A stretch of 63,628 nt of DNA, counting the filler. It is 6 parts of 6 records of this genome, joined end to end, with 100 filler letters (N's around TTAATTAATTAA, not from the genome) between each part and the next. Parts side by side here need not be neighbours in the genome. Positions count along the whole stretch, not along the records: positions 24,096 to 32,389 come from SRR31156797_12356; 5 more parts are not named here. One strand, 5' to 3'. Numbering within the stretch: the first letter of the stretch is position 1; every line of letters begins with the position of its first letter. The notes beneath the pieces were generated by a model. It was not told the DNA's origin. It saw nothing but the letters and a program-made list of their open reading frames with translations, and ran no database searches. Shown here piece after piece: positions 244 to 48,062 of this stretch. A program made the position numbers and the translations under genes.

Positions 244-1263
244 TCACCTGTCTTGACGAAATACTATATTTCTGTCAACAGTTGCAGCTGAAGCACTGCC
301 CGTCAGGACCATGGCCTGCTTTAATTCCATCAGCAGGGTATCCAAATAGGTTTCAACCCCTTCCTGAAGTCCTCCAACAGCGGCAATGGAAAATGGTCGT
401 CCTACCATCACCGCATCAGCACCAAGTGCAAGCAGTTTCAGTACATCAGCACCGGAACGAACCCCACCATCGGCAAAAATGGTGACTTTCCCTTTTACCT
501 TGTCAGCAATGGCCTCAAGTACATCAGCCGATCCAGGCGTATAGTCCAGCACCCTTCCGCCATGATTGGAAACGACAATTGCATCGGCTCCGGCACTGAC
601 AGCCAGCTCAGCCTCATCTGGAGTCATAACACCCTTGAGGATAAATTTCATACCGATGCGACTGATCATGTCAGTCAATTTTCCCAAAGGCTTCGGCGAA
701 ACAGGTCTTCCCATCTTACGCAAAGTTATCAGACCGGCAGCGTCAATATCCATGCCAATGATGTCGGTACCGGTGGCCTTTGCCAATTCAAGCTTTTGGT
801 AAAACTCCTCATCTTCCCACGGTTTAATAAAGGGAATTCCATGCCCTTCTGCCTGCTCGATAGCAGCATACCCTGCCTGATAAATAAATTCAGGAACCCC
901 ATCACCAACGCAGCCAATGGTCCCCTTTGCTTTACAGCCATTGACAATCGCCAAGGCGTAATCCTCCTCCGAGACACCTCCTCCCATATTAAAAGAAACG
1001 CCTCCAATGGGTGCGGCAAAAACCGGCAGGGCGAGTTTTTTACCCAAGACCGACACACTCGTATCTGGCTCGACTACATCATGGATAAGGCGCATGTTAA
1101 AACAAATCTTTTTCAAGGCCTTAACGTTGTTACTAAAAGAAGAACCACTTCCCAGTCCCCCCATTCCAGGCACCTGTCCGACACAGGCCTTGCCATTGCA
1201 GGTAGGACAGACCTTACAGAACGGAGCCATTAATTCTCTAGCTTTGTCACGAATTTCCTTCAT
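244..1263 (-). CDS. FMN-dependent alpha-hydroxy-acid oxidase/dehydrogenase family protein
   Basis: SNHGGR, DGGVRSGADV and GRPF motifs; N-terminal CxxCxxCxxxxC. Confidence 0.92.
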   Translation of the reverse strand: MKEIRDKARELMAPFCKVCPTCNGKACVGQVPGMGGLGSGSSFSNNVKALKKICFNMRLIHDVVEPDTSVSVLGKKLALPVFAAPIGGVSFNMGGGVSEEDYALAIVNGCKAKGTIGCVGDGVPEFIYQAGYAAIEQAEGHGIPFIKPWEDEEFYQKLELAKATGTDIIGMDIDAAGLITLRKMGRPVSPKPLGKLTDMISRIGMKFILKGVMTPDEAELAVSAGADAIVVSNHGGRVLDYTPGSADVLEAIADKVKGKVTIFADGGVRSGADVLKLLALGADAVMVGRPFSIAAVGGLQEGVETYLDTLLMELKQAMVLTGSASAATVDRNIVFRQDR

Positions 1264-18351: not shown

Positions 18352-18451
18352 NNNNNNNNNNNNNNNNNNNNNNNNNNNNNNNNNNNNNNNNNNNNTTAAT
18401 TAATTAANNNNNNNNNNNNNNNNNNNNNNNNNNNNNNNNNNNNNNNNNNNN
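18352..18451. other. artificial contig linker
   Basis: N44-TTAATTAATTAA-N44 (stops in all six frames). Confidence 0.98.
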
Positions 18452-23032: not shown

Positions 23033-23233
23033 TTAATCTTCCATTTCTTTTAGAATCTGCTCAACCTGCACATTGGTTTTTTGTAGTTTTTCTTTGCAAA
23101 TTTTAAGCAAAACCGAAACTCGTTTTACTTTATCAGCCAATTCATCAACGTCGAGTTCTTCGTTTTCAATTTTTTCTAAAATCTCTTCAATTTCAGAAAT
23201 TGCCTCGTTGTAAGAAACTTTTTTAGTGGCCAT
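23033..23233 (-). CDS. xseB: exodeoxyribonuclease VII small subunit
   Basis: SYNEAISEIEEILEKIEN...LDVD pattern; follows xseA. Confidence 0.92.
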   Translation of the reverse strand: MATKKVSYNEAISEIEEILEKIENEELDVDELADKVKRVSVLLKICKEKLQKTNVQVEQILKEMED

Positions 23234-23995
23234 TATTTCTCCTTTTTTGTAATTATACTTTCTATTTTCCCATCAGTAAAATGAGTTTCAATAGTTTCAT
23301 TTACTGTAACATCATTCACCGATTTAACTATTTTCCCTTTTTTCAAAGTTAATGTATATCCTCGTTTCAAAACATTTTCGGGATTCAATAATCGAACTGT
23401 ATTTTCATTTAAATGAATTCTTTCAGATTCTTTTTGCAAATAGTTTTTTACTGCTTTTTCGGAAGTCTGTTTTAAATAAAAAATAGTAGATTTTTCTTTT
23501 AACAAATTTTCGTTTACAACTCTTTTTAGCATCCTTTTTTTCTGGTTAAAACGATTTTCTTTTTTTAATGTCCATACAGAAACAGTCGATTTTAATTCGT
23601 GTGAAAAGTTATTTAACTCCACATTTCTTTGAAATGAATATTGTTTTATATTTTGTTGAAATTTATTTCCTTTTCGGATTAGGTGAATATTCTTTTCATT
23701 GATATATCCTGAAACCGTGTGATTCAAATTTTCTACAAATCTATCCAATTGTATATGTTCATCATCGAGTTTCTCACGGGTTAATTGAACTACATCATTT
23801 TCAAGTTGAATTAATTTTTCATAAAAACTTTCTACTCCGTAAATTAAAAATTCAGCCACAGCTGTTGGGGTTTTCATACGCGTGTGTGCTACTAAATCGA
23901 TAATTGTATCGTCTTTTTCGTGACCAATTCCGGTAATTACCGGTAAAGGGAATTGTGTAATATTTATAGCCAAATCGTAATTATCGAAACTACTT
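23233..23995 (-). CDS. xseA: exodeoxyribonuclease VII large subunit, C-terminal part
   Basis: PVITGIGHEKD, TPTAVAE and LNPENVLKRGY. Confidence 0.93.
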
Positions 23996-24095
23996 NNNNN
24001 NNNNNNNNNNNNNNNNNNNNNNNNNNNNNNNNNNNNNNNTTAATTAATTAANNNNNNNNNNNNNNNNNNNNNNNNNNNNNNNNNNNNNNNNNNNN
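23996..24095. other. artificial contig linker
   Basis: N44-TTAATTAATTAA-N44. Confidence 0.98.
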
Positions 24096-24168
24096 TTGGG
24101 AAAACTCTTGACATATTTCCCCATCGTTTCATTTTTGCTGCTTTTCTATACTCAAAAGCTCTACCCAT
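24096..24168 (-). CDS. yebC: YebC/PmpR family protein, N-terminal fragment (not in the ORF track)
   Basis: Translates as MGRAFEYRKAAKMKRWGNMSRVFP, the characteristic YebC N-terminus of this clade. Confidence 0.85.
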
Positions 24169-24225
24169 ACTTTACCTCTTTACCTTTAATTTTGTAAAAT
24201 TTTACCATAAGTTCCTAATATTTAC

Positions 24226-24804
24226 TTATATAGACTTCATAAATATAGCCAAAGCAAGCCTATCTTTAAGCTCAAGTTTTGTAAAAATACTACTAATATG
24301 CTTCTTTACAGTAACTACTTGAACCCCTAAATACTCAGCTATCTCTTTATTAGAATACCCTTTTGCAACAAGATATGCCACCTCTTGCTCTTTATATGTT
24401 AAAGTCTCCACTTTGCTTTTATCTTGATTTACATCTTTAGATACATCAATCTTTTCAATGATAAAGTTTAATAGATCTGGATATAACCATACATTTCCAC
24501 TAGCAACTGTTAATAGTGCATGTTTTACTACAGGAGATTCTGTGTCTTTACTAATATAACTTTTACACCCAATCTTTATGAGATACGCCCCATATTCAAG
24601 TCTAGGATCACTTGTAAAAACAACTGTTTTTAAGCTCTTTGGTATCTTTAAAAAGTATTCTTCGACTTTATTGATATTCTCAAATCTATCAATATCTAAA
24701 AGTAAAATATCCTCACTTTTAAATGTATCTTGATAGTTTCCATCAACTATTCTTTCCCCTTCAACTTTCTCAAAATAGCTATCATTAGAATCAATATAAA
24801 TCAT
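24226..24804 (-). CDS. NarL/LuxR-type regulator with a shortened receiver domain
   Basis: LLLDID; LTYKEQEV...GYSNKEIA...TVKKHISSIFTKL HTH. Confidence 0.88.
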   Translation of the reverse strand: MIYIDSNDSYFEKVEGERIVDGNYQDTFKSEDILLLDIDRFENINKVEEYFLKIPKSLKTVVFTSDPRLEYGAYLIKIGCKSYISKDTESPVVKHALLTVASGNVWLYPDLLNFIIEKIDVSKDVNQDKSKVETLTYKEQEVAYLVAKGYSNKEIAEYLGVQVVTVKKHISSIFTKLELKDRLALAIFMKSI

Positions 24805-24807
24805 CTT

Positions 24808-26493
24808 TTACTCTCTTTGGGTTGTTTTTAGGATAGGTTTAAGTAAAAATGACATAATTGTTTTTTTACCAACTAAAACATCTGCACTCACTGTCATACC
24901 AACTTTGATCTTGTATTTTTCATCATCTGAGAGATAATTTTTATCAGTCTTTACATAGATTAAAAAATGATCTTCATTGGTATCTTTATCAGTGATTGTA
25001 TCTGGAGAAATGTTCACAATCTTTCCTTCAAGATCTCCATAGATCGAATAATCAAATGCAGTAACTTTTAATTTTACAGGTTGACCAATATGTAACTTTG
25101 CAATCTCTTCTGGCTTGATTTTCACTTCAGCTAACATCTCTTGAGTATCTGGGACAATAGTCATCAATTCAGCTGAAGACTCTACAGAGGTTCCTATAGT
25201 ATGTACAAACAATTCTTTTACTGTACCTCCAACTGGAGATCTTACAATAGTTCTTTGAATAACATCTTCAAGATTTTTCTTTGTTTCTTTTAACCTTAAT
25301 ATCTCTGATACAACTTCATTATATTGAGTAGAGGCTTTGTTTCTAAAATTTAATCGTACCTCTTCAATACTATTTTTAACCTCTTCTTGTTGTGTTTTGA
25401 TCTGGACGATCATCTCTTTTGCACTATTTTGAGCTACTCTAGCATCATTGAGTTCTCGTTCAAGATTTGTCAACTCATATTTTGTAAAAACCTTTTGCTT
25501 CTCAAGCTGTTTTTTTACTTTAAACTCTGCAGCTAAACTATTATAGTTTTTTCGGGAATTCTTATATTTTGCCTCAGCATCTATAAGTTCACTCTCTTTA
25601 GATTTTAATTGTTCTTGAAGTTTTAATACTTTTTGATTTAACTCCTCTTTATTACTAAAAAAAAGTTTTTTCTCTAGTTCTAAAAGCTCTTTATCACACT
25701 CCCCTTCACATGAAATTCTATCTAATGGAATACCTGAAGATTCTGCTTTTAAACGAGCAAGTTTTGTCTCTAACTCCATAATTCTGATACGATTTTCATC
25801 AAGTTTTGTTTGATGTGATAAGGGACTAAACTTTAATAAAACCTGACCTTTTTTTACCACATCTCCCTCAGATACTAAAATATGGGAGACTATTCCCCCT
25901 TCATAATTTCGTATGCTTTGTACCTTTGAAGTTGGAATAAACTGACCTGATCCACGGGCAAGTTCATCAATTTTAAAACTTACCGAATAGATCAAAAACA
26001 AAAAGATAAAAGCAACAACAAGCTTAACTACCATACTTACTTTATTTGAAACAGTATCAAGGACAGCTGCACTTGTAGTAGATACAAACCCTAAAGCACT
26101 TTTATCGATTTTTTCTCTTGAGAACATTTTTACTTGGAGTTTATGAAGTAGTTTTTCATTGGTGATATCTTTAATGATAAAAACAAAGCCACTATGCATC
26201 CCATCGGTAATCATTGGGTGTATGGTTGAGTGGGTTTGTACCTCTTGGGCGTTGATAGTTGTTAGAGTAAGCTCAGTTCCCCACTCTTGTCCATCATTAT
26301 TTTTAACATACTCGCACCCATTATAAAGTTTTGTCTCTGAACTATGTTCAACTATTGTTGTAAAACTTTTCCCTTTTAATGTCTCATTGGAATACCCTAA
26401 AATATCTGAAAGTGCTTTACTGATCTCAACTACTTCAAGATTTTCATCAACTACACAAAAAGGTAAATATTCATAGGCTAATTGACTTATCAT
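24808..26493 (-). CDS. HlyD-family T1SS membrane fusion protein with an N-terminal PAS domain
   Basis: aa 1-115 PAS (VVDENLEV..ISKALSDILGYS..LKGK...IIKDIT), then TM, IDELARGSG, EGGIV, RSPVGGTV and AFDYSIYG. Confidence 0.9.
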   Translation of the reverse strand: MISQLAYEYLPFCVVDENLEVVEISKALSDILGYSNETLKGKSFTTIVEHSSETKLYNGCEYVKNNDGQEWGTELTLTTINAQEVQTHSTIHPMITDGMHSGFVFIIKDITNEKLLHKLQVKMFSREKIDKSALGFVSTTSAAVLDTVSNKVSMVVKLVVAFIFLFLIYSVSFKIDELARGSGQFIPTSKVQSIRNYEGGIVSHILVSEGDVVKKGQVLLKFSPLSHQTKLDENRIRIMELETKLARLKAESSGIPLDRISCEGECDKELLELEKKLFFSNKEELNQKVLKLQEQLKSKESELIDAEAKYKNSRKNYNSLAAEFKVKKQLEKQKVFTKYELTNLERELNDARVAQNSAKEMIVQIKTQQEEVKNSIEEVRLNFRNKASTQYNEVVSEILRLKETKKNLEDVIQRTIVRSPVGGTVKELFVHTIGTSVESSAELMTIVPDTQEMLAEVKIKPEEIAKLHIGQPVKLKVTAFDYSIYGDLEGKIVNISPDTITDKDTNEDHFLIYVKTDKNYLSDDEKYKIKVGMTVSADVLVGKKTIMSFLLKPILKTTQRE

Positions 26494-28661
26494 GCTCGTT
26501 TCCCATTTAATTTATCTAACACCTCTTGTTTTGGACCATCCATAATGATCTTTCCGCTATCCATAACAATAATACGATCAACCAACGCAAGGTCTGCAGG
26601 CGTATGGGTAATTAAAATAAGTGTCTTTTTTGCTAAAACCTCTTTTAAGTTATTAAGAACTCTTTTACTTGTCCCACTATCAAAAGATTTTGTAGGCTCA
26701 TCTAAAATAAATAAAGCACTATCATCAATAACTGTTCTTGCTAATGATATGGCTTGCGCTTGTCCCCCTGATAGGTTTTCCCCTTTTTCTACAATCGGCA
26801 ATTCAAACCCTTGGGGGTGTTTATTGATAAAATCACTTGCACAACTAATTTGAGCTGCACGTAACAACTCTTCATCACTTGCTTTATGTTTTTTAAGTAA
26901 TATATTACTTCGTGCAGTCCCTGAAAAAAGTGAAATATCTTGTGACATATAAGAGATGTTTGACCTTATCTCTACAGGGTCTATCTGTTTTACATCGATT
27001 CCATCAATTAATACTGAACCCTCATCTTGATGATAAAAGCCTAAAAGAAGCTTTTGAAGTGTACTTTTTCCACTTCCCACTTTTCCTAATATTGCTACCT
27101 TTTCACCCTCTTTTATACGAAGATTAATATCAAGTAATTGTTTAAAATCTGTCCCAGGATAGCCAAATGTAACATGCCTAAATTCAATATTTCCTTTAAA
27201 TGCAGGACGTCTAACAAACTGCTTATCACTTGGATGCTCCGCTTCAAGGTTCATAACATTTTCAATCGAATCATATGCAGACCGTACATGCTGATAGTAT
27301 GCGATCATACCAGCAACTTGTCCCATAGGTCCAAGAGCCCTACCAGATAAGATAACACTTGCAATAAGTGCACCAATAGTAAGCTCTTGAGCATCAATCA
27401 TATATGCACCAAAGATAATAAGAAGTACGGTATTTAACTGTGTAACAAATCCTGACACTGTCCCAATTGCAGCAGAAAGTGTTTTGGTTTTAATCCCTTT
27501 TTCTGCGATCTCACCAGTTGCCTCTTCCCATTTATATTGATAAAAACTTAAAGCATTTAAAGATTTTAAAGCTTCAAGGTTTGAAATTGCTTCAATTAAA
27601 ACACCATTTTTCAAACTCGCTGCCCCTGAAGTTGCTTTAACGCTTTCTAACATCTTATCTTTAATACTATACGTATATACTATTACTATCAACATTGAAA
27701 CAACTGTTACCCATACTAAATGACCTGATACAAAATAGATCGTAAAAAGAAAAATAAAAACAAAAGGGATATCAATAAATAAAGTAATCGTCGTTGAAGA
27801 CATAAAACTTCTTAAAGATTCAAACTCTTTTAATACATTTGCAAAAGATCCAATTGGTTTTGGAATGGCAGAAATTTTGAGATCCATTACCTGCTCAAAA
27901 ATAATTGAAGACATAATAATATCTGATTTTTTCCCTGCAATCTCAAGTAAATAGGTCCTTAAAAAGCGAAGACCTAGATCGATCATATAGACGACCACAA
28001 CTCCAAGAGCAAAGATCCAAAGGGTATTAAATGCACCTGTGGGAATAACCCTATCATATACATTCATGGTAAAAATAGGAGTGGCGATCATAAATAAGTT
28101 GATCACCAAAGAAGCTAAAAGAACATCTTTATAGATATATTTAATAGTATGGATCGTATCCCAAAACCAGTGTTTATCTTTATTGTCTATTAGTTTAAAA
28201 TCTTCCGATTCAAAGCGATACTCTTTTTTAAGAAAAAATGCTAACCCAAAATACTCTTTTTTAAGATCTTCAATAGGAACTTTACTAACAATCTCCCCTG
28301 CTTCAGGAAATATCACATAAGCATTTTCTCTTAGTTCATCATAAGATTCAATAATACAAGCATTTACCTCTGTAGGATCATCAGTTTTTAAAAGTATTAT
28401 ACAAGGAAGGATCAAACTACTGATATCTTCTAGATCAATTTTGCTTATTTTAGTTTTGAAACCTGCTTTATGAGCTGCTCTACTAAAAAGTGCTCTTGAA
28501 GAGTTCGCTTTTACTGAGAAAAGCTTAGGTGCAGTTTGCCCCTCTTCAATAGGAAGACCTTCACTTAAAACCTCCCTACTATATCTTTTTCCATGAAGTT
28601 TGGTAAAAACTACTAATGCATCAAGAATTGATCCTGGAATATATCTTCTATATTGTCCCAA
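26490..28661 (-). CDS. type I secretion ABC permease/ATPase (LapB/LssB-like, C39-like domain)
   Basis: PIFTMNVYDRV, GKVGSGKST, LSGGQ and LDEPT. Confidence 0.93.
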   Translation of the reverse strand: MGQYRRYIPGSILDALVVFTKLHGKRYSREVLSEGLPIEEGQTAPKLFSVKANSSRALFSRAAHKAGFKTKISKIDLEDISSLILPCIILLKTDDPTEVNACIIESYDELRENAYVIFPEAGEIVSKVPIEDLKKEYFGLAFFLKKEYRFESEDFKLIDNKDKHWFWDTIHTIKYIYKDVLLASLVINLFMIATPIFTMNVYDRVIPTGAFNTLWIFALGVVVVYMIDLGLRFLRTYLLEIAGKKSDIIMSSIIFEQVMDLKISAIPKPIGSFANVLKEFESLRSFMSSTTITLFIDIPFVFIFLFTIYFVSGHLVWVTVVSMLIVIVYTYSIKDKMLESVKATSGAASLKNGVLIEAISNLEALKSLNALSFYQYKWEEATGEIAEKGIKTKTLSAAIGTVSGFVTQLNTVLLIIFGAYMIDAQELTIGALIASVILSGRALGPMGQVAGMIAYYQHVRSAYDSIENVMNLEAEHPSDKQFVRRPAFKGNIEFRHVTFGYPGTDFKQLLDINLRIKEGEKVAILGKVGSGKSTLQKLLLGFYHQDEGSVLIDGIDVKQIDPVEIRSNISYMSQDISLFSGTARSNILLKKHKASDEELLRAAQISCASDFINKHPQGFELPIVEKGENLSGGQAQAISLARTVIDDSALFILDEPTKSFDSGTSKRVLNNLKEVLAKKTLILITHTPADLALVDRIIVMDSGKIIMDGPKQEVLDKLNGKRA

Positions 28662-28663
28662 TG

Positions 28664-30460
28664 TTATTCCTTAGTATTTTCTTCTTTTAAAATATGTTTT
28701 TTTAAGACACCTATCTCAGCTAAAATATTATATTTGATAGTTTTAAGACTATAAGTGTTTTCTATTTGTCTTTTTTTTGCATTATACAGATCATCTACTG
28801 CATCTAGTAATGCTTCTGCATCGATTTTTGCAAACTTATAATCATATTTAGCTCCAAGATATGATTCTTCTCTTTTTTCAACAAGCTCTTTAATAAGTGA
28901 TGCTTTTGTATTTTCAAGATCCATTTGATGATACGCAGTTCTTAGTTTAAAATCTAGATCTCTTTTGATCTCCTCTTTTTTCTCTAATTGTTGTTTATAA
29001 TCTGAAAGTTTTTGTCTATATTCTGCACTATCTTTTCCACCTCTGTAAAGATTAAATGATGCTTCTAAGGCCACAGAGCTTTCTTCAAAATTATTTTTAG
29101 ATGGAATATTATTTGTGTACTCTTCATCTGATAATTTTGTCTTTCCTACAAGATCAATAGTTGGGTAAAATCCACTTTTAGATTGTGCTATTTTCTCTTG
29201 ATACATTTGAATATTTGCATCCATCTCTTTAATTGATGGTGATTTTGTAAAGATCTCTTCAAAAGCGATGATCTTATTTGTCAAATACTCACTTTTAGGA
29301 TCAAGTTTTTCAAAATAGTTTGTATCATCACTTTCAAGGTCAATATATTTTTGTAATTGAATGATGCTGTCTTTATAAGCCATTTTCATCTCTTCTAAAT
29401 TGATCTTTTGCTGAGTATATCTACTTTGAACTTTTGCATAATTGTTTAAAGTTACTAAACCACTTTGAAATTTGATATCCTCTTTTTGTACCCAAGTCTT
29501 ATAGTTATCTAGGTTACTATATGCAAGATCAAGTATCTCTTTTTGTTTTTGAATAGAAGTATATGCTTCGATTACAGATTTAATAAGATCTATTTCGACT
29601 TGCTCTGTTAAGTATCTATTTGATTCAATGCTATATTGATCGATATTATTTTGAGTAAGATCTTTGAATCCATTAAAAATGTTATAACGTAGAGTAAGAT
29701 CTACTGATTGTGTGTTATCAAAGTTATCATCTTCAGATTCAAAATATTTTGTATAGTTATAGTTTAAATCCAGTGTTGGATAAAATGAAGATTGATTTTT
29801 TCTTAATTCTTCTTGTAAGGACTGGATTAAAAAATACTTTTCTTTTAAACTTGGATAGTTATTCATAAGCTGTTGAACATATGATGCAAGAGTTATCACC
29901 TTATCGTCTGACTTTTGATAACTTGTTCGTAATTGAATCTCCATCTCAACTCTTCTTGAAAGTCTTTTGATCTCATCACCCTCTTCATCTTGAACCACTT
30001 CTGAAGATGATCGCCCAATGGCAAAAAAATTTGTTTCGATCCAGTTTTGTTCTGGTTTTGAGAAACGTTTTGAAAGCTCTTTTACGTATTCTAATACATT
30101 GTCTGCTCTTTCTTGAGAAATAGAGAGGTTCCTAAGATATTTATCCTCAGTTGTTTTCCCTTTTGAGCTATCAGAAGAGGCATGTCCCATAATAGAAACT
30201 TTTTTTACATAGTCTTTGTACTCAATCAATATCTTTAAGATGTCATGTAAGTTATGTTGTAGATTTGAAGGTATCTTTCTATTTACATCTTGATAATAAT
30301 CCACAATTCTTAAAGAGTGTGTTTCCTCCTCATACTCTGCATTATAATACTGTAACTTTGAAAGCAACTCATTTGTAGTATCAGAATACATACTATCAGA
30401 CTTTGCAAATAGATAACAACTCATCATCACTACTACTGTAAATATCAACTTTAACTTCAT
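28664..30460 (-). CDS. TolC-family outer-membrane protein with an N-terminal OmpA/MotB-like domain
   Basis: Signal peptide; GHASS...NLSISQERADNV...SRRVEM; then OEP repeats FYPTLDL, YNIFNG, FYPTIDL and FNLYRGG. Confidence 0.87.
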   Translation of the reverse strand: MKLKLIFTVVVMMSCYLFAKSDSMYSDTTNELLSKLQYYNAEYEEETHSLRIVDYYQDVNRKIPSNLQHNLHDILKILIEYKDYVKKVSIMGHASSDSSKGKTTEDKYLRNLSISQERADNVLEYVKELSKRFSKPEQNWIETNFFAIGRSSSEVVQDEEGDEIKRLSRRVEMEIQLRTSYQKSDDKVITLASYVQQLMNNYPSLKEKYFLIQSLQEELRKNQSSFYPTLDLNYNYTKYFESEDDNFDNTQSVDLTLRYNIFNGFKDLTQNNIDQYSIESNRYLTEQVEIDLIKSVIEAYTSIQKQKEILDLAYSNLDNYKTWVQKEDIKFQSGLVTLNNYAKVQSRYTQQKINLEEMKMAYKDSIIQLQKYIDLESDDTNYFEKLDPKSEYLTNKIIAFEEIFTKSPSIKEMDANIQMYQEKIAQSKSGFYPTIDLVGKTKLSDEEYTNNIPSKNNFEESSVALEASFNLYRGGKDSAEYRQKLSDYKQQLEKKEEIKRDLDFKLRTAYHQMDLENTKASLIKELVEKREESYLGAKYDYKFAKIDAEALLDAVDDLYNAKKRQIENTYSLKTIKYNILAEIGVLKKHILKEENTKE

Positions 30461-30470
30461 CTTTTTCTCC

Positions 30471-31919
30471 TTATTGGTTTAATTGCTCTAATGATTTATA
30501 ATTTGGAAGATCTTGTGTCATATCAACTAATGCGATAATGATCAATCTCTCACTTACATATTTTGCATATGTTAACTCATTGAATTTTATAATAAAATGG
30601 TGTGGACTTCCATTAATCGACATCACTGTTTTATATAGTCTTTTTGGATTATTGAGTAGATAATCGATCCAAAACTCACCCTCAATATACTGCTCCCAAA
30701 TATAATTTGGAGCATCAAACTTTTCAAATAATTCACTTACACATCTATGTTGTGATTTAAATCCATCAAAATCACCAAATCTATTAAAAAATCCCATAAA
30801 TCGTTTATTTGCACTTGTTATCTCATATCCATTATGCATGATCATAAGGTTTGGCTGCATATTAAAAAGATTTTCAAGTTTCTTTTCATTGTAATCTAAC
30901 TGATCAGATTTTTCTCTTAAATCATCATTTTCAAGATTTAAGATCTTATTATCCCTATCAAGTCTTTTCATTGTATTTTTTACGTATAAAGCATATACAG
31001 CAAAAGCAAAAAATAAACTTACTGCTATAATATATGCAATATACTGAAAAAGGATCTTTTGCTCAAATGGAGTACGAATAGCTATAAACTTTTTAAATAC
31101 AATTATGTTAGCAATAAGTTTATCATCTATACTTACGGGATATTTTATTGTTAAGTATTCTGTAGAAAACCTATTATTATAGGGAGTCTCCCATTCTTTA
31201 AAATAGTTTCCAATACCTTGTTGTCCAATAAGTTTTAAAAGGTAAGGATCACTATTTTTATTGGCTACATAATAATCATCTATAAATTTTTTTGTTCGAG
31301 AATGATCTATATCTATCTTTTTAGAATCTTCTTTATTAAGGATCACCACAGCATCTAATCCATCTTCTCTTAACATATTAACAAGAGTATCGAAATTTGA
31401 TTGAAATACTACGCTACCAATATTTTTGCCATAATGGAGGATTGGGGATATATCATAAAATGAAACCCCTATTTTTGAAGCATTAAAACCTGTTCTAAAA
31501 ACAGTATCATTTTTCAAAACTTCAAGATCCCCATGGTACTGAAAAATCTCTCTATTTCTATCTTTGATCGCAAGATAATCACTTTTTAAATATTGTGAAA
31601 GGTCAAGTTTTTTTAATAAGGAGTTTATATCAAGTTGAGATCTGTCTCGTTCTAAAAGAGCCTCTTTAATATTTTGATTACAAGACAAACTTTTCCCCAT
31701 AAGTCTTAATTGATCAAATTTATTATGTAAATAAGTATCTAGTTTATTATTCGTATCTATAGCAAATTGCATATAGATATGTTCTTTATATTCTTTGATA
31801 TCTTTTTCATAAAAACTCTTGGCAATGTAAATAAAACTAACTATTAAAGCTAATGTAAGTACTTGATACAAGAATTTGTATGGTATAAAATCTTTAAAAC
31901 TGAATTTTTTATTTTGCAT
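30471..31919 (-). CDS. membrane sensor: TM, Cache-like periplasmic domain, TM, coiled coil, PAS; no output domain
   Basis: Two hydrophobic helices; cytoplasmic PAS (LFNMQPNLMIM..ANKRFMGFF..HRCVSELF...VDMT) followed by the stop 12 aa later. Confidence 0.8.
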   Translation of the reverse strand: MQNKKFSFKDFIPYKFLYQVLTLALIVSFIYIAKSFYEKDIKEYKEHIYMQFAIDTNNKLDTYLHNKFDQLRLMGKSLSCNQNIKEALLERDRSQLDINSLLKKLDLSQYLKSDYLAIKDRNREIFQYHGDLEVLKNDTVFRTGFNASKIGVSFYDISPILHYGKNIGSVVFQSNFDTLVNMLREDGLDAVVILNKEDSKKIDIDHSRTKKFIDDYYVANKNSDPYLLKLIGQQGIGNYFKEWETPYNNRFSTEYLTIKYPVSIDDKLIANIIVFKKFIAIRTPFEQKILFQYIAYIIAVSLFFAFAVYALYVKNTMKRLDRDNKILNLENDDLREKSDQLDYNEKKLENLFNMQPNLMIMHNGYEITSANKRFMGFFNRFGDFDGFKSQHRCVSELFEKFDAPNYIWEQYIEGEFWIDYLLNNPKRLYKTVMSINGSPHHFIIKFNELTYAKYVSERLIIIALVDMTQDLPNYKSLEQLNQ

Positions 31920-32023
31920 TAAACTACCGAACACTTCATTTAGAGTATCCGATAGTCTACATCAAAAGTTCTTAAAAGTAACTTTTTTATAACTTTTTTA
32001 TTTATACATTATTCTTACATTAT

Positions 32024-32389
32024 TTACATCACATCCCCACCGTTATTACTATTATCCATCATATCATTTAAAGCATCTGTTACTTGATCAGAACCTCCAC
32101 CTGAGAAATCACCACCTCCTGTTGTTGTATCCGCAGTACTGCTACTATTAGTATCTGGGATAGGAGCATCTAAACTTTCAGGCTCTTCCGCTTCAAAGAA
32201 CTCCATCTCCTCTTCCATTCCAATACTAAGTACATCACCTGCTTCAATCTCGATATTTTCTTCCATGATCATCTCTTCCACTTCTACTGATTCTTCAGCA
32301 ACATCGTCAAAATCAATATCCATTTCCATCTCAATATCCATATTAAGATCTAGTTCAGGCTCTTCAACAACTTCTTCCGCTGCTTCCTC
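32024..32389 (-). CDS. C-terminus of a very acidic protein, probable T1SS substrate (5' truncated)
   Basis: Frame is open to the contig edge (EEAAEEVVEEPELDLNMDIEM...); Glu/Asp-rich with no Lys/Arg; upstream of the T1SS operon. Confidence 0.6.
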   Translation of the reverse strand, partial: EEAAEEVVEEPELDLNMDIEMEMDIDFDDVAEESVEVEEMIMEENIEIEAGDVLSIGMEEEMEFFEAEEPESLDAPIPDTNSSSTADTTTGGGDFSGGGSDQVTDALNDMMDNSNNGGDVM

Positions 32390-32489
32390 NNNNNNNNNNN
32401 NNNNNNNNNNNNNNNNNNNNNNNNNNNNNNNNNTTAATTAATTAANNNNNNNNNNNNNNNNNNNNNNNNNNNNNNNNNNNNNNNNNNNN
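32390..32489. other. artificial contig linker
   Basis: N44-TTAATTAATTAA-N44. Confidence 0.98.
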
Positions 32490-34457: not shown

Positions 34458-34699
34458 GGATAGCTTGATGGGCGCAATGGCAAGGACTGTCAATCGCCGA
34501 GGTTGCGCGGACGGTTAAGAAAACGGTCGGCGGTTAAAAATCCCGACACCGTTCTGAAACACCCCAACCGAATTGCTGAAACGGTTCTGAAATATCGGAA
34601 AGTTAGAAATAATTGTCGGAAGGCGGTTTTGCGTCCCTTCTGCGGCGATCGAACAAAAAATGGAGACACCTGGTGTGTAGTTCGCTGGTCTGCGAAGAA

Positions 34700-36655
34700 A
34701 TGCCGTGGCAAAGCCAAAATGGGGCGGCCCAGAGCGAAGACCTGAGCGCCTTGTTCGACATCATCCCGATACCGATTCTGGTCGTCGATGGCCGGCGGCG
34801 GGTCGTCAAGGCCAACCAGGCGGCGATGTCGTCGCTGGTCGACCTGGAAGGTGCGGCCGGAACAAGTGGCGGCGACTATTTGGGATGTGTCCACGTGTCG
34901 GACAATCAACGCGGTTGCGGTTTCGGCGAGGCGTGCCAAAGCTGCGGGGTGCGCGAGCAGGTGATCGACACCCTTGAAACGGGGGCTTCGCACCGGAAAA
35001 AGGAACAGATTCTAAGCATCGACAATGATGGTGTCGTAACCGAGTATCCGCTTTTGACATCGACCGCGGCCCTCGAACGGGACGGCGAACGACATTGCAT
35101 CATCGTTATCGAAGAAATCTCCGAGATCAAATCGCTGGAGAAAAAAGCCCAAGAGAGCGAGAGACTGGTGCGCGGTGTTTTCAATGCCGCCGAGGACTGG
35201 ATATCCTTCAAGGATCGGGACTTTCGGTACACTCGTGTCAACGAGGCCCTGGCCGCTGCACTGGATAAAAAACCACAGGATCTGGTCGGTTTCAGCGATT
35301 TCGAACTCATGCCCTACCATATGGCGGAAACCATTCACCGGGCCGACGAGATGGTCCTCGATGGGTATGGGTATCGCGGCGAATTCGATCGCCAGATAAA
35401 CGGCTCGGTTCGCAGAATCGAATCGGTCAAGGCGCCGCTGAAGGATGACGACGACAACGTCATCGGCATTTGCACAATTTCACGCGATGTCACGGAATTG
35501 CGCGATGCCAGCAGGCGTATCGAGAGTTCGGCCCAACGAATGCAGCGGATTTTGGATAGCGCCGCCGACGGCATCTACGGAATTGACGGCGATGGAATCT
35601 GCACCTTTTGCAATCCCACCGCTCTTCGGTTGCTGGGTTATGAAAGCGAATCCGACCTTGTCGGAAAAAACGTTCACGAACTGATCCATCACAGCCAGCC
35701 GGATGGAACTCGATTGCAGGAACGGGACTGTCCAATTCACCGCGTTCTGGAAAAAGGCGAGTCGAGCATCGGCGAAGATCTGTTTTTCTGGCGTGCCGAC
35801 GGCACTTGTTTTCCCGTCGATTATCGGGTCGCATCGCTTCGTGGCGGAGACGGCGAAATGGGAAGCGTCGTCAGTTTTTCCGATATATCCGAACGTATCG
35901 CAATGCAGGAAAAGATCCGTCGGCTGGACAAATATCAGGCGCTCGGTGTGCTGGCCCGCGGTGTTGCCCATAACATCAACAACATGCTGACGCCGGCCCT
36001 TCTGTGCGTGGAATCATTGGACCCGAATCTGTACGGCGATGCGCGGTCGGCCAAAGCGTTGGGAACGATCAGCAAAGCACAAAACAGGATCCGCGAGGTT
36101 GCCCGCCGGCTTCTGATGATAAGCGGCCAATCGCTGATTGCGCCCAGTAAATTCGATGCCTCCGCGCTTGCGCGCCGTGTGATCGCGGAAATTCACCATT
36201 CGCTGCCGAAAGGCGTTTTGTTGAAGGAAAGGATCGACGACGGACTTGGCCTGCTTCGAACCGACCAGGAACAGTTTTACCTTCTGGTATCGAATATCAT
36301 CCGATTTCTTGGAGCGTCGGCCGCCGACGGACGGTGCGAAATTCATATCGACGTGTGCCGGGGCGATGCAATGAAACTCGATCAGGGCAGTCGCGGCGAA
36401 GTCGATACCGTGGAATTGCACTTCCGAGGGACCGGCGTCGAGGGGGCGCTCGCCAATGCCTGCAATCCTATGGATCCGCTCGCGATTGAATTCACCGAAG
36501 GTTCCGAAAATGACCTGGAATTGGCGGCGGTGCATGCCATTCTATTCCAGTTGGACGGTAAAATCCGCATTGGTTCGGAAGACGGAGCACAAACATATAT
36601 CCATGTGCAGTTGCCACTTTTCATGGAGAATCAATCCGGCGATCTGATAGCCTAG
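34700..36655 (+). CDS. three-PAS pseudo-histidine kinase (His retained, HATPase degenerate); start uncertain
   Basis: H-box GVAHNINNML; N, G1, F and G2 boxes replaced (e.g. ENDLELAAVHAI where GTGLGL is expected). Confidence 0.8.
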   Translation: MPWQSQNGAAQSEDLSALFDIIPIPILVVDGRRRVVKANQAAMSSLVDLEGAAGTSGGDYLGCVHVSDNQRGCGFGEACQSCGVREQVIDTLETGASHRKKEQILSIDNDGVVTEYPLLTSTAALERDGERHCIIVIEEISEIKSLEKKAQESERLVRGVFNAAEDWISFKDRDFRYTRVNEALAAALDKKPQDLVGFSDFELMPYHMAETIHRADEMVLDGYGYRGEFDRQINGSVRRIESVKAPLKDDDDNVIGICTISRDVTELRDASRRIESSAQRMQRILDSAADGIYGIDGDGICTFCNPTALRLLGYESESDLVGKNVHELIHHSQPDGTRLQERDCPIHRVLEKGESSIGEDLFFWRADGTCFPVDYRVASLRGGDGEMGSVVSFSDISERIAMQEKIRRLDKYQALGVLARGVAHNINNMLTPALLCVESLDPNLYGDARSAKALGTISKAQNRIREVARRLLMISGQSLIAPSKFDASALARRVIAEIHHSLPKGVLLKERIDDGLGLLRTDQEQFYLLVSNIIRFLGASAADGRCEIHIDVCRGDAMKLDQGSRGEVDTVELHFRGTGVEGALANACNPMDPLAIEFTEGSENDLELAAVHAILFQLDGKIRIGSEDGAQTYIHVQLPLFMENQSGDLIA

Positions 36656-36774
36656 TTCGTTCGTGGACGGAAAACGGCAATGTAGGAAACCTACAACAAG
36701 CTTGAAAACAATCATAAATAGAAGGCTTCCAAATGCGTTGAATTGGTTGACGGGTCGTGGGGGCTAGAGAAAAC

Positions 36775-39700
36775 ATGCCGGCTAAAACCATGTCGAATGA
36801 CAGCCTGGAAAAATTGCGCAGGGCCATCGAAACCGTACTGGTTCCATACCATTCCCTCGATGTGAACGGTGCGATCCTGAACGTGAACCGGGAATGGCTG
36901 AAGGCGCTTGGATACGACCGGCAGGACGTCGTCGGTAAGCCTTTCAAAAGCTTTCTTACGGAAACCAGCCGCGAATTGTTTCCCGAAAGGTTCTCCGCCT
37001 TCAAAACGAAGGGTGAAGTTCAAGACGTGGAATTCGATCTCATCCGGTCGGACGGGACCGTCATCAATGTTCGTTTCTCGGGACGTATCGAATTTGACGA
37101 CGCAAAACGGTTTGTTTGCACCCATTGCACATTCAGGGATATCAGCGCCGAAAAAGCGGCCGCCGAAGAGCTGCGCGCAAGCGAGGTCCGGTATCGCAGC
37201 CTTTTCGACCAATCGCCGGATGGCATTCTTGTCCATCGCAAGTTGATCGTTCTTTTCGCAAATGCGGCGGCGGCGCGGATTCTCGGATTCGAGGGACCCG
37301 ACAAATTGGTCGGCGCGCGGATGGAGGATCTGGTCCATCCGGATTCGTTCGACAGGGTTGCGCGGCGTTCCCGGCGGGTCATGCGGTCGAAACAGGCGCT
37401 CGAACCCGAAGGCCAGACCTACCGGCGGCGGGATGGCACGCCTGTCCCCGTCGAGGCAACCGGCCAGGCGATCAAGGTTGACGGTAAATGGGCCGTTCAG
37501 TCCATCCTTCGCGATGTATCCCGTCGACAGCAGTATGAATCCGCGTTGCGGGAACGGGAATCGAGGCTGTCCAGTATCCTGGCCGTTGCGCCGATCGGCA
37601 TCGGTGTCGTCAAGGATGGCGTTTTACAGCAGGTCAATGTTCGTTTTTGCGAAATGGTCGATCGGCAACCCGAAAACCTGCTTGGGAAAAGCCTCGGATT
37701 CCTCTATCCGGACGAGACGGAATTCGATCGTGTGACCGATGAACAAACCGGTCAAATGGCCGATACGGGGTTCAGCACGGTCGAAACCCGATATCTGACC
37801 CGGGACGGCAGGGCGCTGGACGTTCTGGTTAACTCGACCCCCCTGGATCCAGGCAACTTGCCTGCCGGCGTAACCTTCACGGCGTTGGATATTTCGAACT
37901 GGAAAACATCCGAACGGGAACTGCGGGAAGAACGCGATTTCACCAACGCCGTCTTCGAAATGGCCTCATCCCTTGTCGTCGTTCTGGATTCGGCAGGACG
38001 CATCATTCGCTTCAACAGAACCTGTGAACGGATCACCGGATATCGTCGGGAAGAGGTCATCGGCCGGCCGGTCTGGGAAATCGTCATCCCGGAGAAGGAT
38101 CGCGCCACGGTGCGGGCCGTTTTCGGATCCGGCGGCACTTCCGATCCCATACGCACCTTTGAAAACGAGTGGCAGGCAAAAAACGGCGAACGGCGGTTGA
38201 TCCGCTGGTCCAATTCCTGGTTTCCGAACGCGGATGGAGAAACCTATGGGATCGGTATCGGCCTCGATATAACCGAAAGCAAAAAGGTCGAAATTGCCTT
38301 GGTCGAAAGCGAGAAACGTTTCCGAGGCCTTTTCGAGAACATGCAGGAAGGCATGATCCTGCATGAAATGGTTACCGACGAATACGGTAAAGCGATCGAC
38401 TATCGTATCATCGACGGCAATCCGGCGGTCCAATTGCATACCGGCATCGATGTGCAATCGGCGATCGGCCGACGCGCCACCGAACTGTACGGCGTTGACG
38501 ATCCGCCGTTGCTGGATACCTATGAAAAAGTCGCCAATACGGGACAGCCGATTACTTTCGAGACCGATTTCGAGCCGACGGGCCGGCATTTCCGCGTTTC
38601 GGCCTTTTCCCCGCGGCGCGGTGTTTTCGCCACCGTATTCAACGACATCACAAGCCGCAGTCGGGCCGAGGCCGAGGTCAAGCGGCATCGCGAAAGGCTG
38701 GCCGAGGTTCTGGAGGCGGCGGGCGAGGGCATATACGCCATCGATTCCGAAGGTCTTTGCGTTTTCTGTAACTCGGCCGCCCTTGCATTCCTCGGCTACG
38801 AGACGGCGGATCAGGTCGTCGGCAAAAACATGCATGAACTCATGCATTGCCGGCGCGAAGACGGCTCGCCCTATCCGAAGGAGGAGTGTCCGGCCCATTT
38901 GGTTGCAAAGACCGGACAACCGGCGAAGGTCATCGAAGACTGGTTCATCCGCAGCGACGGCACGACCTTCCCGGTCGAATTCTCGGCCCATCCCATGCGG
39001 GTCGGCGAGGAAACCGTCGGTGCGGTGATCTGTTTTGCCGACATCGCCGACAGGAAACGCACTCAGGAAAGGATGCACCGGCTTTCAACGGCGGTCGAGC
39101 AAAGCCCGATCAGTATCGCGATTACCGATGCCGACGGCCGGTTCGCCTATATCAATCCGTGTTTCGTCCGTGAATCCGGATATCGGCTTTTGGATCTCGA
39201 GACAGAAGATCCACCTCTTCTATTTTCAACCGGGCTCGATTCCAGCGTCCAAGTCGGGCTAAGCGACGCCTTGATCCGCGGGATCGAATGGCGTGGCGAG
39301 GTTCAAATGCGAACCAAAGCCGGCGATGCCATCTGGGGATCGTTGGTGATGTCGCCGATCACAGATCCACAGGGAATGATCGTCAGCCATCTGTGGACTT
39401 TCGAAAACGTTTCCGAGCGGCGAAAGCTGGAACGCACTCTTCTCCAGGCCCAGAAAATGGAATCCCTCGGCCAGTTGACCGGCGGCGTTGCGCATGACTT
39501 CAACAATATCCTGGCGGTCATTCTTACCAACGCCGAAATCCTGGCCGAGGAATACGAACGCGATGCCCATAACGCACCGGTCATCAATTCCATCGTTCGT
39601 GCCGTCTATCGCGGGTCTTCACTGACCGAACGGCTGCTCGCCTTCTCGCGCCGCAGCGAACTGTCCCCCGAACCGGTCGACGTATCCGCAATGATGGTGG

Positions 39701-40608
39701 ATATGAAAGACATGCTTCAGCGAACCCTCGGCGAAACGATTGATGTCAAGGTCGAGGCCGATAGCGGACTTCCTTCCATCGTGCTCGACCAGCATCAGTT
39801 CGAAAACGCCATCCTCAACTTGTCGGTGAATGCCCGCGACGCCATGCCGTCGGGGGGCAGCCTTGGTGTCAGGGTGACATCCGAAATCCCCGGCCCCGCT
39901 TTTCAGACCGAGGATTCCAAGGACGATCAGGGATATGTCTGTGTCAGTGTCGCCGATACCGGCTGCGGCATCCCGGCTGCGTTGTTGGAACGGATATATG
40001 AACCGCTATTCACGACCAAGAAGAAGGGCGAAGGAACCGGATTCGGGCTCAGCATGGTTTACGGATTCGTCAAACAATCCGGGGGCGAGATCGCCGTCGA
40101 AAGCGTCGAGGGAACCGGAACCGTCTTCCGGCTGTTTTTCCCGGTCGCATCGGACAAGGGTTCCAGCCGTGACTCGGGACCCGCCAGGGATCGGAAAACG
40201 GCTGCCGCACAGGACCGTGGGCAGGTCTCGCCGCTGAACATCCTTTTGGTCGAAGACGACGAACATGTCAGGGAATCGACGCGGTTGATGTTGCGCGGGG
40301 ACGGTCACAACGTTGTCGCCGCATCGGACGGCGACGAAGCGGTTGAAATCCTGAAGGACCGCCCCGAACTCAATCTCGTGGTTTCCGATGTCGTCATGCC
40401 CGGCAATATCAGTGGGCGGAGTCTGGCCGCCGCGGTCCGCGGGATACGGCCGGATATCAATTTGTTGTTTACGTCGGGCTATTCCGCCGGTTACCTCTCC
40501 GAGGCCGATTTGCTCATATACAACGCGAAGTTTCTGCCCAAGCCCTACAGCAAGAAAGAACTCGATGACGCCATCGCGGCGTTGGTTGACGGCCAACCGA
40601 ATGAATAG
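36775..40608 (+). CDS. cytoplasmic hybrid histidine kinase with seven PAS domains and a REC domain (CckA-like core)
   Basis: GVAHDFNNIL, NLSVNARDAM, DTGCGI, FTTK, GTGFGL; REC VEDD/SDVVMP/KP. Confidence 0.93.
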   Translation: MPAKTMSNDSLEKLRRAIETVLVPYHSLDVNGAILNVNREWLKALGYDRQDVVGKPFKSFLTETSRELFPERFSAFKTKGEVQDVEFDLIRSDGTVINVRFSGRIEFDDAKRFVCTHCTFRDISAEKAAAEELRASEVRYRSLFDQSPDGILVHRKLIVLFANAAAARILGFEGPDKLVGARMEDLVHPDSFDRVARRSRRVMRSKQALEPEGQTYRRRDGTPVPVEATGQAIKVDGKWAVQSILRDVSRRQQYESALRERESRLSSILAVAPIGIGVVKDGVLQQVNVRFCEMVDRQPENLLGKSLGFLYPDETEFDRVTDEQTGQMADTGFSTVETRYLTRDGRALDVLVNSTPLDPGNLPAGVTFTALDISNWKTSERELREERDFTNAVFEMASSLVVVLDSAGRIIRFNRTCERITGYRREEVIGRPVWEIVIPEKDRATVRAVFGSGGTSDPIRTFENEWQAKNGERRLIRWSNSWFPNADGETYGIGIGLDITESKKVEIALVESEKRFRGLFENMQEGMILHEMVTDEYGKAIDYRIIDGNPAVQLHTGIDVQSAIGRRATELYGVDDPPLLDTYEKVANTGQPITFETDFEPTGRHFRVSAFSPRRGVFATVFNDITSRSRAEAEVKRHRERLAEVLEAAGEGIYAIDSEGLCVFCNSAALAFLGYETADQVVGKNMHELMHCRREDGSPYPKEECPAHLVAKTGQPAKVIEDWFIRSDGTTFPVEFSAHPMRVGEETVGAVICFADIADRKRTQERMHRLSTAVEQSPISIAITDADGRFAYINPCFVRESGYRLLDLETEDPPLLFSTGLDSSVQVGLSDALIRGIEWRGEVQMRTKAGDAIWGSLVMSPITDPQGMIVSHLWTFENVSERRKLERTLLQAQKMESLGQLTGGVAHDFNNILAVILTNAEILAEEYERDAHNAPVINSIVRAVYRGSSLTERLLAFSRRSELSPEPVDVSAMMVDMKDMLQRTLGETIDVKVEADSGLPSIVLDQHQFENAILNLSVNARDAMPSGGSLGVRVTSEIPGPAFQTEDSKDDQGYVCVSVADTGCGIPAALLERIYEPLFTTKKKGEGTGFGLSMVYGFVKQSGGEIAVESVEGTGTVFRLFFPVASDKGSSRDSGPARDRKTAAAQDRGQVSPLNILLVEDDEHVRESTRLMLRGDGHNVVAASDGDEAVEILKDRPELNLVVSDVVMPGNISGRSLAAAVRGIRPDINLLFTSGYSAGYLSEADLLIYNAKFLPKPYSKKELDDAIAALVDGQPNE

Positions 40609-41559: not shown

Positions 41560-41659
41560 NNNNNNNNNNNNNNNNNNNNNNNNNNNNNNNNNNNNNNNNN
41601 NNNTTAATTAATTAANNNNNNNNNNNNNNNNNNNNNNNNNNNNNNNNNNNNNNNNNNNN
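41560..41659. other. artificial contig linker
   Basis: N44-TTAATTAATTAA-N44. Confidence 0.98.
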
Positions 41660-47962: not shown

Positions 47963-48062
47963 NNNNNNNNNNNNNNNNNNNNNNNNNNNNNNNNNNNNNN
48001 NNNNNNTTAATTAATTAANNNNNNNNNNNNNNNNNNNNNNNNNNNNNNNNNNNNNNNNNNNN
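47963..48062. other. artificial contig linker
   Basis: N44-TTAATTAATTAA-N44. Confidence 0.98.

Follow-up and report, generated by a model that had tools for sequence, protein, structure and literature searches.

The DNA considered here, called the window, is a 63.6-kb stretch made up of six shorter stretches split by five spacers, each consisting of N44, TTAATTAATTAA and a further N44; GC content varies from 0.31 to 0.58 among the six. One of them is an entire contig of 8294 bp (24096-32389, GC 0.31, with N runs at 24052-24095 and 32390-32433 on either side), and it encodes a type I secretion system (T1SS) together with a membrane sensor and a regulator. Five genes lie on the minus strand (Table 1): the sensor; a TolC-type channel with an OmpA-like N-terminus; an ATP-binding cassette (ABC) exporter; an adaptor of the HlyD kind that starts with a PAS domain (PAS-HlyD); and a LuxR-type regulator. 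Going from sensor to LuxR, successive genes are 10 nt and 2 nt apart, then overlap by 4 nt (ATGA), and are lastly separated by 3 nt. An earlier, sequence-only reading of this DNA had described five tightly coupled minus-strand genes downstream of the C-terminus of an acidic protein; open reading frame (ORF) analysis recovers the genes with exactly these spacings, and the acidic C-terminus is real (32024-32389), though the contig end cuts its ORF. The other stretches adjoining the locus contig have GC contents of 0.35-0.58 and may derive from different organisms of one metagenome bin; as separate contigs, they are uninformative on the locus. A near-identical contig helps instead: contig 7 of genome G509 (locus L151) is 98.8% identical to the window contig over 7789 bases, and in it the genes downstream of the cassette can be seen. 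G509, whose cassette is 99% identical, serves below as the stand-in for the source genome.

The cassette is a lineage-specific variant of the Lap/LssB-class T1SS, probably exporting giant calcium-binding adhesins, and it carries three linked additions: a peptidoglycan-binding domain on TolC, a PAS domain on the adaptor, and an upstream dCache_3-PAS sensor that is kinase-less. The arrangement is conserved but undescribed in Arcobacter relatives.

The core of TolC, ABC and HlyD proteins is placed in the Lap/LssB class by its family matches. The ABC protein matches TIGR03375 (LssB type) over residues 12-721 with 832.6 bits, against a cut-off of 693.1, and has a weak C39-like domain at its N-terminus (Peptidase_C39, E 0.004). 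The adaptor matches TIGR01843 with 332.2 bits (cut-off 208.65). As the sequence-only reading had it, the adaptor opens with a cytoplasmic PAS domain: PAS_9 matches residues 11-111 at E 1.5e-10, the domain as a whole occupying aa 9-114 with a nearly invariant Cys60, and is followed by a conserved juxtamembrane segment and a transmembrane (TM) helix at about aa 153-175. The channel protein consists of an OmpA/MotB-like peptidoglycan-binding domain (aa ~25-176) and a TolC/OEP core (aa ~190-591). The core is recognized by Pfam OEP (161 bits over two stretches); TIGR01844 scores 158 bits, under the cut-off of 225; the OmpA-like part scores 23-26 bits with Pfam, just short of the cut-off of 27.2, and matches the MotB-like ZorB2 at E 1e-15. 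The fusion of the two is kept in relatives, for example in L149.

The sensor spans the membrane twice: TM1 (about aa 17-39) leads into a periplasmic dCache domain (aa 40-285), and TM2 (about aa 290-312) is followed by a helix of some 45 residues, to aa 354, and by a PAS fold at aa 355-470. Its sole family match in Pfam and NCBIfam is dCache_3 (E 1.4e-6). The closest structural match of the periplasmic part is LuxQ (Z 14.4), with DctB further off (Z 11.9). No Pfam PAS model reaches threshold in the C-terminal domain, and its assignment comes from structure prediction: in the AlphaFold model of the sensor (mean pLDDT, the predicted local distance difference test, 85) the order of strands and helices at the C-terminus is that of a PAS domain, and a modelled homologue, 76% identical in that domain, matches the solved PAS domain PpsR Q-PAS1 with Z 9.8 (root-mean-square deviation 2.8, 107 aligned), followed by a LOV kinase (Z 9.7), NifL (Z 8.9) and FixL (Z 7.2). 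By predicted fold, then, the domain is PAS. At E 0.01, Pfam and NCBIfam find neither HisKA nor HATPase, GGDEF, EAL or HD-GYP in the sensor; about 12 residues follow the PAS fold, and the HisKA/DHp and HATPase pair that marks a histidine kinase is missing. The claim that the sensor ends in a PAS domain without catalytic output is thereby borne out.

The nearest other PAS domains in the genomes that carry the cassette are 26-34% identical and belong to dCache_3-PAS-HisKA-HATPase kinases, paralogues that share the periplasmic family as well; the sensor therefore looks like a kinase minus its catalytic half. Members of the sensor family come in several lengths: about 480-580 aa, ending soon after the PAS domain as the window protein does, about 650-730 aa, and about 885-980 aa. 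Unlike the kinases, the short forms have neither HisKA nor HATPase, and the long forms carry CheX/FliM-like domains instead. The PAS domain is the best-kept part of the protein: identity in this domain runs from 57 to 94% across 47 family members, whereas over the full protein it runs from 29 to 65%, and mean pairwise distances are 0.29 in the PAS domain and 0.57 in the periplasmic part. His362, His391, Cys393, His440 and His441 are among the conserved residues of the sensor PAS. A paralogue of the sensor, of 653-658 aa, with a PAS domain 57-58% identical and no kinase domains, is encoded in L169 (G503:C1:~2128000) and L170 (G504:C1:~529000), away from T1SS genes over the 20 kb around it.

Gene content and gene order are stable. 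All nine loci from metagenomes or metagenome-assembled genomes (MAGs) that reach past the TolC start have the genes in the order sensor, OmpA-TolC, ABC, PAS-HlyD, LuxR (seven further metagenome loci start inside TolC, ABC or HlyD and were left out of this count), and so do 4/4 fetched genome regions, on contigs of 1.4-2.8 Mb; across the order-conserved loci HlyD identity falls as low as 43%. Among 184 genomes of the family of G001, inferred to be Arcobacteraceae, a PAS-HlyD of the window's kind (type 1, defined by a match at E <= 1e-45) occurs in 21. A sensor orthologue is found in 19 of the 21, in 18 cases on the same contig; in the two sensor-less genomes, G454 and G506, the PAS-HlyD match lies about 2.5-4.7 kb from the contig start. 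The remaining 163 genomes yield the sensor once (G487), with no PAS-HlyD detected there. Most carriers are fragmented MAGs, and absence in them means absence from the available sequence only.

A comparison set of 78 PAS-less Lap-like loci (Campylobacterota, Gammaproteobacteria and Desulfobulbaceae; flanks of up to 10 kb included) behaves otherwise: the sensor is found in 0/78, and no TolC match spans the OmpA-like part. A LuxR homologue is present in 55 of these same loci; it is thus the adaptor PAS, and not the regulator, with which the sensor goes. Sensor, adaptor PAS and OmpA-like domain of TolC are one package, whereas LuxR accompanies T1SSs of this class in general. Thus the co-occurrence of sensor and PAS-HlyD, by which the sequence-only reading had proposed to judge itself, is found (19 of 21 genomes, nine of nine loci, none of the PAS-less loci); the orphan LuxR that it listed in the operon is not peculiar to the system. 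At the level of the order, one of 401 genomes matched, the centre genome itself, with at most eight candidates scored per genome; a scan of genome contigs by full-length HlyD alignment found PAS in two of the 80 loci listed, the others having PAS-less HlyD. Full-length PAS-HlyD proteins form about 90 protein clusters, their named sources being Campylobacterota and Arcobacteraceae MAGs.

Table 1. Features of the locus in window coordinates; the last three rows refer to homologous loci or proteins, in their own coordinates
Feature	Position	Strand	Remarks
Start of next gene, outside the system	24096..24168	-	Cut by contig end; YebC-like from first residues only
NarL/CsgD-like LuxR regulator	24226..24804	-	GerE helix-turn-helix
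PAS-HlyD T1SS adaptor	24808..26493	-	TIGR01843 and PAS_9
LssB/LapB-class type I secretion ABC permease/ATPase	26490..28661	-	TIGR03375
OmpA/MotB-like-TolC outer-membrane channel	28664..30460	-	OEP with OmpA-like N-terminus
Sensor cytoplasmic PAS-fold domain	30474..30857	-	Best-conserved part of the sensor
Kinase-less membrane sensor, 482 aa	30471..31919	-	ORF 30471-31934, likely ATG 31919
Acidic ORF, 3' end, 121 codons	32024..32389	-	Cut by contig end
Spacers	18352-18451, 23996-24095, 32390-32489, 41560-41659, 47963-48062		N44-TTAATTAATTAA-N44
CheX/FliM-like extension of sensor homologue, L149	5113-6270		
CheX/FliM-like extension of sensor homologue, L097	5109-5696		
CheX/FliM-like extension of sensor homologue, protein P0130	residues ~545-722		

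The neighbourhood of related cassettes suggests a candidate cargo. Just upstream of the sensor, L090, L091, L095, L097, L098 and L150 have the end of a giant adhesin, and these adhesins share a conserved C-terminus; the upstream adhesins of L090, L097, L150 and L021 have Cadherin, Big, RTX or immunoglobulin-like (Ig-like) domains. In G501 an adhesin of about 5400 residues stands beside the cassette, with Ig-like and Ca-tandemer matches and, at its N-terminus, no match to a retention module. Housekeeping genes, and no adhesin, lie upstream in L099 and L147-L149; the cassette is therefore a unit in its own right. The acidic protein of the window may be the substrate, although its fragment is unlike the conserved adhesin C-termini of relatives; it has no Pfam or NCBIfam match, and no homologue was found among proteins of 213-2000 aa. 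In two relatives a small gene that the window lacks separates adhesin from sensor (L090, 3663-4346; L091, 3714-4400); its product, of about 227 aa, resembles a protein kinase (Pfam Pkinase, E 1e-11).

One way to understand the package is to locate the point of control in the secretion apparatus itself. With no phosphotransfer or nucleotide-cyclase domain, the sensor would act by protein-protein contact, and it may be dedicated to this T1SS; on the adaptor, its likeliest target would be the cytoplasmic PAS domain with the juxtamembrane region. Whether the substrate is engaged or the channel assembled could then depend on a periplasmic signal; the PAS domain of the adaptor might read a second, cytoplasmic one; and LuxR would set transcription of the locus. 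That the sensor contacts this region of the adaptor and so gates secretion is the likeliest of the readings considered here, though held tentatively; it draws mainly on the sensor's going with the adaptor PAS and not with LuxR, and also on the conserved gene order, the lack of a catalytic domain, the high conservation of the sensor PAS and the recurrence of sensory domains on other adaptors. A stricter form supposes that a periplasmic cue, passed on by direct PAS-PAS contact, switches export of the giant adhesin with neither phosphotransfer nor second messenger, as one case of a wider class of sensory adaptors that includes PAS-HlyD and GAF-PAS-HlyD; this form is somewhat unlikely. The geometry is compatible with contact: each of the two PAS domains stands about 40-45 residues from a membrane helix. 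They are not close relatives, since profile-profile comparison aligns just 12 columns, at E 0.4, at the usual strand/helix motif of PAS domains. In most descriptions the substrate itself triggers type I secretion, and LapD and LapG regulate Lap-type adhesin systems once export has taken place. If contact between sensor and adaptor is what happens, a sensory adaptor with a dedicated, output-less sensor places regulation at the secretion step, and offers a compact natural example of signalling through domain contact alone. The cassette is small and conserved, and some of its genomes have contigs of 1.4-2.8 Mb, those of G501 and G503 being 2.5-2.8 Mb long; the idea is therefore open to direct test.

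Several observations weigh against direct contact between sensor and adaptor, and each is taken here with the alternative that it favours. To begin with the sensor family, the homologues of about 650-980 aa carry, after the PAS domain, one or two domains like those of CheX, CheC and FliM. No Pfam model detects these extensions; it is by fold that the extra modules, of 160 residues, match the middle domain of FliM (Z 13.8), CheX bound to CheY (Z 12.1) and CheX (Z 11.8). We know of no description of a CheX/CheC/FliM fold that ends a transmembrane Cache-PAS protein. Solved relatives of such domains bind receiver domains of the CheY type, and their presence suggests a receiver-type partner, for example the N-terminal domain of LuxR.

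The regulator has some of the features that such a partner would need. Its GerE helix-turn-helix (aa 134-188) matches at E 8e-14, and the family profile aligns with VraR, DesR and NarL over a stretch that opens shortly ahead of the phospho-acceptor strand and runs to the C-terminus. Asp37, aligned to the acceptor region of VraR, is invariant; the acidic pair and the Thr/Ser of a phosphorylatable receiver are not conserved among 15 family members, and no Pfam Response_reg match appears in the N-terminal domain even at E 5. LuxR also matches VpsT (PDB sequence, E 1.4e-12) and CsgD (NCBIfam, E 1.7e-12). CpsQ of Vibrio parahaemolyticus belongs to the same CsgD/VpsT group. Where a regulator of the VpsT type would have its cyclic di-GMP (c-di-GMP) motif, which we take to be W[FLM][TS]R, G-N-x-W-[LV]-Y-P is invariant in the LuxR family, with W-L-Y-P in the window protein. 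From these alignments LuxR is probably an atypical regulator of the CsgD/VpsT kind, non-phosphorylated. It follows the adaptor in 14 of the 15 related loci that extend past the adaptor; L096 is the one without it. In L086 (5428-6005) the LuxR homologue is split over two frames, by a frameshift or a sequencing error.

A second perspective, accordingly framed around the regulator, supposes that the sensor controls transcription. On this view LuxR is sequestered or activated when its degenerate receiver is bound by the cytoplasmic part of the sensor, a role that falls to the CheX/FliM-like domains in the long forms; expression of adhesin and T1SS follows the periplasmic signal; and the adaptor PAS is a separate, autonomous input. 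The receiver-like alignment with its invariant Asp, the position of LuxR after the adaptor, the CheX-like ends and the kinship of the sensor PAS with that of dCache_3-PAS histidine kinases in the same genomes all speak for it. Set against this are the 55 PAS-less loci that have LuxR and no sensor, the locus that has no LuxR at all, and the window sensor itself, a short form with no CheX-like domain. What we take to be the catalytic motif of CheC and CheX is not evident by eye in the alignment of the extensions, and distances of the sensor PAS and the LuxR receiver do not correlate (partial r 0.10) in a mirror-tree comparison over 13 loci, a small and non-independent sample from which ABC-core distances were regressed out to remove shared phylogeny. 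On balance control of transcription is unlikely.

Direct contact between sensor and adaptor is also challenged by what else the carrier genomes encode. The sequence-only reading noted that lapD and lapG are not in the operon, and proposed a route with no c-di-GMP step. The first part stands: the cassette holds neither gene, nor any gene for a protease. Elsewhere in carrier genomes both are present: G509 has an adjacent lapG-lapD pair on contig 68 (LapG and LapD are the best NCBIfam names, both under the curated cut-offs), and the two genes occur also in 5/5 other carriers examined. Their presence in a genome with a 99%-identical cassette weakens that proposal, and a c-di-GMP/LapG step may act on the adhesin of the cassette itself. 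In G503 and G501 the pair adjoins a different, PAS-less T1SS; adhesin secretion systems in such genomes thus number two or more and differ in their accessories. HlyD-type adaptors number two to five per carrier genome. The G503 example, L174 (G503:C1:2630000-2645000), has lapD and lapG by a TolC gene, an ABC gene whose product is 36% identical to that of the window, a PAS-less HlyD and an open frame of more than 1730 aa.

A protein of Desulfovibrio vulgaris suggests how the sensor might work from the inside out. DvhD is a dCache-TM-PAS-HD-GYP protein, an analogue of LapD that pairs with the protease DvhG (PMC13090378). It is linked to a T1SS and shares with the window sensor a periplasmic dCache domain, TM helices, a juxtamembrane helix and a cytoplasmic PAS domain; it runs on into the HD-GYP domain, which binds c-di-GMP (PMC13090378), whereas the window sensor stops after PAS and has no protease gene adjacent. 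By analogy, the PAS domain of the sensor would read the state of the cell, and the dCache domain would hold or release a periplasmic partner (a LapG-like protease, the retention region of the adhesin, or the OmpA-like domain of TolC), so that retention of the adhesin, not its secretion, is controlled. Besides the layout shared with DvhD as far as PAS, the genes for LapG in carriers fit this proposal, as does the likeness of the periplasmic domain to LuxQ; LuxQ binds a periplasmic protein, not a small ligand. The remaining evidence makes it improbable: no c-di-GMP-binding module (GGDEF-EAL or HD-GYP) is found in the window sensor or in its longer homologues, the cassette has no protease gene, the lapG genes found adjoin a canonical lapD, those of G503 and G501 another T1SS as well, and the N-terminus of the G501 adhesin has no retention-module match.

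A third line of evidence against contact between sensor and adaptor concerns the history of the two PAS domains. Judged by mean distance, the sensor PAS (0.29) evolves more slowly than its counterpart on the adaptor (0.47), and in the same 13-locus mirror-tree comparison distances of the two domains do not covary (partial r -0.34). All type 1 loci come from one narrow clade, with just three representatives reaching E 1e-30 at 50% clustering; the association may therefore have arisen once and been inherited since. Moreover, about 18 genomes of the family have a second type of PAS-HlyD, about 31% identical, and in the five of them examined no sensor orthologue was found. The best sensor matches there, 26-34% identical, are ordinary histidine kinases; an adaptor PAS can therefore work without this sensor. 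In L021, which has an adaptor of this second type, adhesin, ABC and TolC genes are divergent from PAS-HlyD and LuxR, with no sensor in the flanks. The TolC protein of L021 (7550-9820, minus strand; 756 aa) has a C-terminal SPOR domain, another peptidoglycan-binding domain; in the window protein the OmpA-like domain sits at the other end.

These observations suit an account with no direct coupling, in which the adaptor PAS senses a small ligand or redox state in the cytoplasm by itself, the dCache protein acts outside the cassette, and the linkage goes back to a single ancestral insertion. PAS-HlyD and GAF-PAS-HlyD proteins without this sensor, the narrowness of the type 1 family and the missing covariation are as such an account would have them. 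It must also explain why gene order and tight spacing persist when HlyD identity is only 43%, why the sensor PAS is under strong constraint, and how a sensor with no output domain able to act at a distance would do so; we regard it as quite unlikely.

Whatever the part played by the dCache protein, sensory domains on adaptors reach beyond the cassette. A library of 1.84 billion representatives yielded three further PAS-HlyD representatives (P0181, P0198 and P0219) and one GAF-PAS-HlyD protein (P0176, 789 aa), and the ESM Atlas has clusters of PAS-bearing, adaptor-like proteins in Pseudomonadota and Thermodesulfobacteriota, which serve as leads only. Signal input at the adaptor is therefore a recurring design. 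In the literature searched, no paper was found that deals with a PAS domain on the adaptor of a T1SS. Adaptors with sensory domains are thus a wider, undescribed design in which the dCache protein is not always needed; in the same literature, peptidoglycan-binding domains fused to TolC and CheX/FliM-like ends on a membrane sensor are likewise undescribed.

Known systems share parts of the arrangement. The Lap system of Pseudomonas fluorescens (LapA-LapEBC with LapD/LapG) has the same class of ABC protein (LssB/LapB), an HlyD-type adaptor and a TolC-type channel; relatives of the window cassette resemble it further in the giant Ig-like, cadherin-like or RTX adhesin that adjoins the system and in having lapG and lapD in the same genomes. 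The window differs from it in the adaptor PAS, the OmpA-like domain of TolC, the kinase-less sensor and the position of lapG-lapD outside the cassette. In Salmonella pathogenicity island 4 (SPI-4), SiiABCDF and SiiE form a giant-adhesin T1SS to which a MotB/OmpA-like peptidoglycan-binding component has also been added; that domain belongs to a separate inner-membrane protein, SiiA, with SiiB as its partner (bioRxiv 10.1101/641415), whereas in the window it is fused to the N-terminus of TolC. The cpsQ-mfpABC locus of Vibrio parahaemolyticus links a gene for a c-di-GMP-binding regulator, CpsQ, to a membrane-fusion-protein transporter locus needed for biofilm; as described there, it has neither an adaptor PAS nor a sensor gene (PMC5552913).

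A tandem repeat search of 31000-56000 returned no repeats, and a scan for promoter-like and terminator-like sites was uninformative (47 against 42.2 expected, and 5 against 2.5 expected). On a contig of GC about 0.57, unrelated to the locus, two large plus-strand open frames (34613-36655 and 36757-40608) look by eye like multi-PAS sensor kinases, no family search having been made. A gene for the large subunit of exonuclease VII (23233-23973, minus strand) has a match that starts at profile position 97 of 315; its ORF starts 22 bases from the end of its contig (23995), and the gene was probably cut in assembly and is not a real truncation.

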